Assembly: GCF_003334335.1 (NCBI RefSeq)
Contig: NZ_QOWQ01000052.1
From: Escherichia coli
GTDB taxonomy: Bacteria > Pseudomonadota > Gammaproteobacteria > Enterobacterales > Enterobacteriaceae
Strand: one strand, 5' to 3'
DNA length: 20,350 nucleotides
In this document: one piece after another, positions 19,453 through 20,350 of the stretch
Numbering within the stretch: the first letter of the stretch is position 1
Layout of the letters: each line of letters starts with the position of its first letter
Program-made: the position numbers and the translations under genes
Notes under the pieces: model-generated
Databases searched by the model: none
Told to the model about the DNA's origin: nothing
The model's input: only the letters and a program-made list of their open reading frames with translations

Positions 19453-20350
19453 TTAATCATGATACGGTATGCATACTGAACTCAATCCCGGGACACTATT
19501 TCTGATAAAAATATATTCTCCTTTATTATTAAGCGCCTCAAATCGTCCATCAGGTGTTGCGAGATAAAATGCTTCAAGATTATTATCTTTACTTCTTACA
19601 AGATTTTTATCGCTACTTGAAAAAAATTCATCAACATAATCGCCATGACTATCTGCACCGTGAGTATGATAAGCAGCAACTCTATCTGTACCTGTGGGAC
19701 ATTTTCTTTTCAGAGGATATGACTCCTTTCTTAAATTATCAGTTTCTGCCTTAGATGCAAAATATTTTCCATTAGTATCTTTACAGACAATACCAGAGTA
19801 TTCCATATCATTACATAGAGATCTATTCTGCGTTTCTTTCAAAGCATCTAACGCAGCATCTGCAGTACTATCAAATTTACTTGGTCCTATTATACGTGAA
19901 AGAACACCACAAACTCCCCCCGTACATGCTCCAGATCTGGCATCATCCCAAGTCTGCAATAATCCCATAGGGTCAATTTGTTGTAGTGGATTTAAAGGAT
20001 ACTGATATAAATTCCATCCCCCTTTCAACCCCATCGGGTCCTGAGTAATATACCGCCCCTGCAACGGATCGTAGTACCGGTGACGGTTATAGTACAGCCC
20101 TGATTCCTCATCATGCTGCTGCCCTGGCAGACGGTACGGCTGATACACATGATGCGGGTTCTCCTCATTAAGCTGGTTGCCCCATTCATCATATTCCGCG
20201 CTCCACGCCGTATTGCCGTCTTCGCTGATAAGCGCCAGCGGCAGTCCCCGGTGGTCGCAGTGATAAAGATGAGCTTTTCGCGCCGGTGTGTATTCCGGCT
20301 CCACCTGTCTGGCCAGTTGCTCCACCGTCAGCCCGCACTGCGCAAGCCAC
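19453..20350 (-). CDS. rhsD: Rhs protein, 3' portion (end of core plus C-terminal toxin domain); 5' end lies beyond the window
   Basis: The open frame continues to the window edge (the track's Met at 20325 is internal). It contains the Rhs core-end motif [16 protein letters not shown]...[13 protein letters not shown] followed by a ~168-aa AT-rich CT domain with [10 protein letters not shown] and several Cys. The rhsD assignment rests on the ybbC/ylbH neighbourhood. Confidence 0.7.
19960..20242. repeat. Rhs core-end direct repeat, copy B (in rhsD)
   Basis: Partner of 18764-19045; same orientation, about 1.2 kb apart. Boundaries are approximate. Confidence 0.7.

Follow-up and report, generated by a model that had tools for sequence, protein, structure and literature searches.

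In Rhs polymorphic toxins, the motif PxxxxDPxGL serves both as the demarcation between core and tip and as the site of autoproteolysis. [quoted passage not shown] The Pfam family to which the toxin domain reported here belongs, DUF4329, was published as Tox-JAB-2 (Zhang et al., 2012, Biol Direct 7:18, PMC3482391), one of two JAB clades that tip RHS and other polymorphic toxins, with a signature of E, H[ST]H, S and D, the immunity partner Imm-NTF2-2 and a nuclease activity predicted from the analogy to JAB domains of RadC type. Here, we analyse a 20,350-nucleotide stretch of Escherichia coli DNA (contig NZ_QOWQ01000052.1 of assembly GCF_003334335.1; hereafter the window), in which the 3′ end of rhsD encodes a toxin tip of this kind, RhsD-CT (for C-terminal, CT), followed by the gene ybbC. 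The best overall explanation, to which we assign a probability of about 0.55, is that RhsD-CT is a JAB-fold zinc hydrolase tip that acts in the periplasm or cell envelope, with YbbC as its immunity protein.

The toxin and immunity genes are laid out as follows.
19453..20325, minus strand: open reading frame (ORF) with the 3′ end of rhsD, continuing past the end of the window
19990..20350, minus strand: final stretch of the RhsD core (an RHS repeat-associated core), running off the end of the window (PF03527 and identity to MG1655)
19960..19989, minus strand: demarcation motif PxxxxDPxGL at the core/toxin boundary, read from the translation
19456..19959, minus strand: RhsD-CT, a polymorphic toxin domain of 168 residues directly after the demarcation motif
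19453-19455, minus strand: stop codon of RhsD-CT
19501..19860, minus strand: Pfam match to DUF4329 (PF14220), that is Tox-JAB-2, the JAB-fold core
19045..19413, minus strand: ybbC, the cognate immunity gene, encoding 122 residues of the Imm-NTF2-2 family (PF15631) and starting 40 nucleotides downstream of the toxin

The ORF and the 3′ end of rhsD in E. coli K-12 MG1655 share 100% identity, the rhsD–ybbC pair likewise matches MG1655 at 100%, and identical or near-identical copies of the module occur in 1859 complete E. coli genomes. The following hallmarks of a Rhs polymorphic toxin are present: an RHS core (Pfam RHS, PF03527, on ORF residues 19–54, E = 2.5e-16), the demarcation motif, a variable AT-rich tip, a downstream immunity gene and orphan tip modules. 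The guanine-plus-cytosine (GC) content of RhsD-CT is 36.5%, against 54.6% in the adjoining Rhs core and about 55–58% in the last part of the core within the window, and the domain has six cysteines, at CT positions 12, 17, 49, 59, 87 and 163. An earlier sequence-only reading of the window, made from the letters and without database searches, had described an AT-rich domain with several cysteines after a DPMGL boundary, and this description is borne out; the coordinates that it gave, 19453–19960, are correct to within one base, to which we add the strand (minus), absent from that reading. Outside the window, the N-terminus of MG1655 RhsD gives a weak match to Pfam PAAR_motif (E = 0.14) and a strong one to DUF6531 (E = 1.2e-18).

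RhsD-CT matches DUF4329 with an i-Evalue of 2.5e-37 over 113 of 116 model positions, so that the family, which the sequence-only reading could not name from the letters by themselves, can be assigned with tools; the Pfam search that it proposed leads to a family that keeps the very His, Ser and Asp residues it had singled out. Profile, E/H[ST]H/S/D signature, tip position after an RHS core and an adjoining Imm-NTF2-2 gene all place the domain in Tox-JAB-2, from whose published description (PMC3482391) it differs structurally in nothing; the difference lies only in the functional reading, which was nuclease there. No NCBIfam model matched RhsD-CT or YbbC, and the sole PHROGs match was the unannotated family phrog_33532 (E = 8e-5). 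A HMMER scan of 1.84 billion representative proteins recovered 254 relatives at E ≤ 0.001; conservation was read from an alignment of 118 relatives, a curated alignment of 51 sequences (A1), all 51 of which match DUF4329, and a wider set of 224 non-redundant domains that includes metagenomic sequences. Three Logan-derived ‘homologs’ (P0002–P0004), with an apparent 70–87% identity to RhsD-CT, were excluded as database artefacts rather than variants: they differ from it throughout by H→Y, S→F, A→V, T→I and P→L substitutions, so that YHTHG, for instance, reads YYTYG, and this is the signature of C-to-T converted (bisulfite-type) reads assembled as genes.

The predicted active site maps to the following positions.
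19801..19803, minus strand: codon of E53 (in DMEYSG), predicted general base of a JAMM-type site, from alignment conservation
19609..19677, minus strand: HxH...SxxD segment, CT residues 95–117, present as quoted in the sequence-only reading
19666-19668, 19660-19662 and 19609-19611, minus strand: codons of H98, H100 and D117, predicted zinc ligands
19618-19620, minus strand: codon of S114

E53, H98, H100 and D117 are invariant both among the 118 relatives and in A1 (n = 51), and S47, G56, P88, T99, F113, S114, T135 and P136 are conserved at ≥90% in A1 and at about 88–97% among the 118. In the wider set, H98 and H100 are each present in 222/224 domains, S114 in 221/224, D117 in 223/224 and E53 in 214/224, with exceptions that are mostly gaps; given this near-complete conservation, the H-x-H ... 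S-x-x-D pattern is not a chance resemblance. The residues that the sequence-only reading had picked, those of the His-Thr-His motif and the Ser and Asp of SSSD, turn out to be exactly the conserved ones among the 224 relatives. Its loose comparison with JAB/MPN-type hydrolases stands as regards the fold, the residue set and the published Tox-JAB-2 class; what it missed was the invariant E53, which completes the JAMM motif. It was also right that the spacing is not canonical: HxH and SxxD are separated by 13 residues in RhsD and by 12 in most relatives, against seven in classical JAMM motifs, the long spacer being a clade-specific insertion. A nearer S-x-x-D, S104-x-x-D107, was considered and rejected, as its positions are not conserved and D107 occurs in just 26 of the 118 relatives.

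Structure prediction, also proposed in that reading, gave a JAB/MPN (deaminase-like) fold: the AlphaFold2 model of RhsD-CT has a predicted local distance difference test score (pLDDT) of 91.5 and a predicted template modelling score (pTM) of 0.87. Its closest structural matches are BRCC36, PfJAMM1, Cap3, Rpn11, AMSH and BilC, with deaminases at lower Z, and the best PDB match by Foldseek is AF2198, an archaeal JAB1/MPN protein (E = 8e-4). AFDB50 returned solely ‘DUF4329 domain-containing’ proteins without functional names, among them P16919 and P16917, the RhsD and RhsB proteins of K-12. Searches of PDB sequences, whether begun from the single sequence or from the family profile, turned up no solved relative, so the fold is read from the predicted model. 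Among the 51 A1 relatives, five match Prok-JAB weakly at E ≤ 0.1 and one at E ≤ 0.001 (best E = 3e-4). When the family profile was aligned by hhalign to human Rpn11, the HxH strand alone was placed, on VVGWYHSHPGF, at just 9.5% probability, a low figure because the profile was compared against a single sequence, and too weak to count as a sequence-level sign of membership. Judged by its predicted fold and its catalytic residue set (Glu, His-x-His, Ser-x-x-Asp), the domain belongs to the JAB superfamily, and RhsD-CT is very probably a JAB-fold metal hydrolase toxin.

Within that superfamily, RhsD-CT stands apart from the JAMM/MPN+ isopeptidases (Rpn11, CSN5, AMSH and BRCC36, and the archaeal AfJAMM and PfJAMM1) in its spacer of 12–13 residues rather than their seven, an identity of only 9–20%, an additional helical region at the N-terminus that bears Cys pairs, its toxin context, its exported immunity protein and its lack of a ubiquitin-like (Ubl) partner. 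CBASS Cap3 and Bil BilC are cytoplasmic regulators that trim Ubl-like conjugates and, unlike RhsD-CT, are neither secreted toxins nor paired with an immunity protein. The sister clade of JAB toxins, Tox-JAB-1, found in RHS toxins and restricted to Bacteroidetes, differs from Tox-JAB-2 in its signature (NxxxE, HxH, S, D) and in its immunity fold, yet its partner Imm65 is, like YbbC, a lipoprotein immunity protein with a signal peptide and lipobox (PMC3482391).

It is the immunity protein that points to where the toxin acts, and immunity localisation has been used before as an indicator of a toxin’s site of action (PMC3482391). YbbC, named ‘YbbC/YhhH family protein’ in RefSeq, matches Imm-NTF2-2 (PF15631) at E = 6.8e-26, and its N-terminus fits a PROSITE-type lipobox rule (Cys18, with Lys in the n-region), making it a predicted lipoprotein.
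19360-19413, minus strand: lipoprotein signal peptide of YbbC, its first 18 codons, by the lipobox rule

Imm-NTF2-2 adjoins DUF4329 in independent loci, and the two proteins of the window were also modelled together: a fused toxin–linker–mature YbbC construct, built with 22 paired sequences, reached a pTM of 0.75 despite a disordered stretch of 46 residues. In the fusion model, the C-terminal tail of the toxin (its last ~18 residues) rose in pLDDT from 64–71 for the toxin alone to 77–92 with YbbC, which is consistent with a direct toxin–YbbC complex. Behind the lipidated Cys, the same model predicts disorder for the first ~22 residues of the mature YbbC chain, as expected of a lipoprotein tether. 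Literature searches on YbbC, YhhH, Imm-NTF2-2, PF15631 and PF14220 found no functional study.

The pattern extends well beyond E. coli. A metagenome scan with the single motif YHTHG-x10-FSxxD yielded at least 120 loci and at least 124 ORFs matching the family hidden Markov model, and the ORFs around them were scored with a home-made signal-peptide rule (K/R in the n-region plus an uncharged hydrophobic 8-mer, alternative start codons allowed), which behaved as expected on genes of the window: ybbC was positive, and allA, allS and mnmH were negative. Among the matches listed, to which all counts from the scan refer, small ORFs directly downstream of DUF4329 toxins had a signal peptide-like N-terminus in 64 of 77 non-redundant cases (83%), compared with 204 of 850 (24%) for other ORFs of the same loci under identical treatment (Fisher p = 5e-25). 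For toxins clearly of Rhs/YD type, the count was 45/49, and several of the negatives in the census are missed lipoproteins or spurious GC-rich ORFs. Exact-protein look-up of six diverse loci found a downstream gene with a signal peptide in five, and signal peptides are likewise present on the immunity proteins of enterobacterial relatives, namely the RhsB type and another that is 48% identical. Of the 64 downstream proteins (the alignment has 65 members with YbbC), 25 belong to Imm-NTF2-2; they come from metagenomes of soil, freshwater and marine origin, and the family thus extends beyond E. coli, although Zhang et al. tabulate it as ‘E. coli only’ (PMC3482391). The remaining downstream proteins divide among several families that lack annotation, and all of these have signal peptides.

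At least three recurrent immunity-like families with a signal peptide have no Pfam model. One shows the motif YLxAWxVxYxDFLxIxDLSxEQKxLKHYxIGFTED, another is PepSY-like (KAIEIANEEAxKLGYD...GGDLxIFVDAxTGEII) and the third carries SLIELIANPEKYD. One DUF6794 protein was also seen among the ORFs downstream of DUF4329 toxins.

Softer observations on the toxin domain itself point the same way, the first of which involves a pair of cysteines.
19699..19785, minus strand: span of C59 (19783-19785) to C87 (19699-19701), a covarying Cys pair and candidate disulfide

Across the 224 relatives, 60 have both C59 and C87, one has C59 alone, 24 have C87 alone and 139 have neither (Fisher p = 1.6e-33), a covariation of the kind that a disulfide would give; all six cysteines are kept across the enterobacterial clade at 40–50% identity. 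DUF4329 domains are also acidic, with a median isoelectric point (pI) of 5.6 and only 17% above pI 8, which sets them apart from typical nucleic-acid-binding toxins. Together, the YbbC lipoprotein signal, the signal peptides on neighbouring immunity proteins, the covarying cysteines and the acidity of the domain favour action in the periplasm or cell envelope, and whatever its substrate, RhsD-CT probably has an extracytoplasmic site of action.

By analogy with JAMM chemistry, H98, H100 and D117 would hold a Zn2+ ion, E53 would activate the zinc-bound water and S114 would stabilise the tetrahedral intermediate, so that RhsD-CT might hydrolyse an amide or isopeptide-type bond. If RhsD follows general Rhs biology, the tip would be encapsulated in the Rhs shell, cut off autoproteolytically after DPMGL and delivered by the T6SS in strains that have one. 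We propose that it acts in the periplasm or envelope and not on DNA or RNA; DUF4329 toxins would be blocked there by immunity partners that are exported, of which the predicted lipoprotein YbbC is one. Our guess at the likeliest class of substrate is a cell-wall or envelope amide bond, for example a peptidoglycan cross-link, a stem peptide or the Lpp–peptidoglycan tether; that the bond is one of peptidoglycan or of Lpp type is a tentative suggestion. Equally tentative is its extension to the family, in which Tox-JAB-2/DUF4329 toxins at large would be extracytoplasmic JAB-fold zinc isopeptidases or amidases acting on envelope isopeptide-type bonds, rather than nucleases. The logic that we propose, periplasmic action plus exported immunity, is shared by analogy only with Tae/Tai amidases, Tge/Tgi and Tlde1, which have unrelated folds (NlpC/P60-type cysteine amidases, lysozyme-like and YkuD), are not Rhs-encapsulated and have a demonstrated activity on peptidoglycan where that of RhsD-CT is only predicted.

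The view in circulation is a different one: a DNase or RNase acting in the cytoplasm, as put forward by Zhang et al. (2012) from the RadC analogy and taken up by later T6SS surveys, which place DUF4329/Tox-JAB-2 in the RNase or DNase clan with a citation of Ma et al. (2017). The label is an analogy. RadC-type JAB proteins are cytoplasmic and fused to HhH or helicase DNA modules, and their nuclease role is itself a prediction from context (PMC3239186); for Ma et al. (2017), the reviews name Rhs-CT1, CT3 and CT5 alone as tested; and one preprint calls the catalytic activity and substrate ‘still unknown’. The searchable literature yielded no experiment on DUF4329/Tox-JAB-2 activity and none on RhsD-CT, and in this respect the sequence-only reading, which assigned no activity, is still right. 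A nuclease with a cytoplasmic target would be expected to have a cytoplasmic immunity protein, whereas immunity is exported in 83–92% of the listed loci and YbbC is a predicted lipoprotein; nor do acidic domains, or a covarying Cys pair that suggests an oxidising compartment, suit such an activity. The evidence from exported immunity contradicts the current annotation; we regard a nuclease as an unlikely account of RhsD-CT, and the nuclease label for DUF4329 as probably wrong. Exported immunity and Cys covariation equally oppose a JAB peptidase that would attack an essential intracellular protein or Ubl conjugate in the cytoplasm, in the manner of Cap3, BilC and Rpn11. The catalytic residues are intact and the nearest structural matches are isopeptidases, as such a peptidase would have it; yet the toxin clades are reported not to conserve the residues that line the tunnel for the Ubl tail, and most of the host bacteria to have no Ubl conjugation (PMC3482391), which leaves this option rather improbable.

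Were the domain instead a non-peptidase zinc hydrolase of deaminase-like fold, a deaminase or deacylase whose target is a small molecule of the envelope (a lipid-linked precursor, say, or a lipid A amide), the immunity evidence would fit as well; the deaminases among the structural matches lie at lower Z than the isopeptidases, and we hold this to be improbable. The K-12 module might also be a silent, non-deployed remnant with an inactive domain, in line with the displaced orphan tip and pseudogenes at the locus and with the lack, to our knowledge, of a T6SS in E. coli K-12. Against such a relic stand the intact ORF, with all catalytic residues and six cysteines kept, the identical or near-identical copies in so many complete genomes, and an intact immunity gene, whose retention argues for a still-active toxin; of the alternatives weighed here, this one strikes us as very improbable.

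Several points weigh against an extracytoplasmic zinc hydrolase. The cytoplasm is where the majority of characterised Rhs toxins act, and for this family a nuclease is what has been predicted in print. RhsD-CT itself has no significant match to the Pfam JAB or Prok-JAB profiles, its HxH–SxxD spacing of 13 (12 in most relatives) departs from the canonical H-x-H-x(7)-S-x(2)-D, and zinc binding and catalysis by DUF4329 proteins are predictions from sequence. The census depends on a home-made signal-peptide heuristic, and its metagenome loci come from one motif and are phylogenetically non-independent. About 20–29 of these loci encode a non-Rhs DUF4329 protein with a hydrophobic segment before the domain, a topology that could put the JAB domain in the cytoplasm. 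Finally, as E. coli K-12 has, as far as we know, no T6SS, the RhsD toxin is probably not deployed there.

The non-Rhs DUF4329 proteins form a family of their own. Their ORFs are of roughly 365–450 residues, some running off contig ends, and Pfam sees DUF4329 alone. They open with a signal peptide, followed by a beta-rich N-domain of ~270 residues whose end resembles the beta-signal of outer-membrane proteins (..MLTLRGSF, ..WMVSLSGRF); a hydrophobic stretch of A/V/L/G then leads to the C-terminal JAB domain. The gene that follows mostly encodes a FAD-dependent oxidoreductase of 436–459 residues, with a few other large ORFs and never a small immunity-like gene. These proteins may be housekeeping, envelope-anchored JAB enzymes, and a possible pointer to the native substrate.
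Metagenome loci L026, L051, L058, L072, L032, L075, L117, L090, L030, L120, L046, L040, L041 and L122: among those with the non-Rhs DUF4329 family

The gene rhsD, the family DUF4329 and its JAB classification (since 2012) are already on record, and no new entity is described here; what is new is the YbbC lipoprotein signal, the pattern of exported immunity downstream of DUF4329 toxins, the Cys covariation and the acidity of the domain. The tip is present on two K-12 Rhs proteins, RhsD (P16919) and RhsB (P16917), which carries a 51% identical copy. Published surveys place a Tox-JAB-2 tip on PAAR-Rhs candidate effectors in >150 Salmonella serotypes and on nine PAAR-Rhs proteins of enterohaemorrhagic E. 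coli O157:H7 strains. If the exported-immunity pattern holds, the RNase/DNase annotations will have to be corrected, and an extracytoplasmic activity is added to the JAB superfamily; if RhsD-CT does act as proposed, no JAB/MPN enzyme before it would have been shown to work in the periplasm, and it would represent a new class of cell-wall-directed Rhs/T6SS effector.

Downstream of rhsD, ybbC is followed by a displaced ‘orphan’ Rhs tip and then by a small ORF, with mnmH, allS and allA farther away. The remaining features of this region are as follows.
18335-19045, minus strand: orphan Rhs tip of ylbH type, in RefSeq a pseudogene without its N-terminus, matching RHS_core and Rhs_assc_core
18094-18354, minus strand: small ORF of 86 residues, NCBIfam PRK14710 ‘hypothetical’, with a strong transmembrane helix at its start
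16942-17349, plus strand: truncated helix–turn–helix/transposase-like pseudogene, ylbG, which RefSeq marks as ‘missing C-terminus’; like the next feature, it separates mnmH from the rhs element
about 17350-18090: AT-rich stretch (35–38% GC) with small hypothetical ORFs

The orphan carries a different tip, of 142 residues, in which one stretch faintly resembles serum amyloid A (AWD..Y.DM..N..G.D.FFH; E = 0.3 for the best phmmer match in PDB). Given the strong transmembrane helix with which the 86-residue ORF opens, the immunity protein of this second module, too, may be located in the membrane. At 19045, the stop codon of ybbC overlaps the first listed codon of the orphan tip ORF, and that ORF shares 20 nucleotides (18335-18354) with the next small ORF, a tight packing typical of displaced toxin/immunity cassettes. 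The ylbG pseudogene and the AT-rich stretch beyond it look like debris at the edge of the Rhs island.

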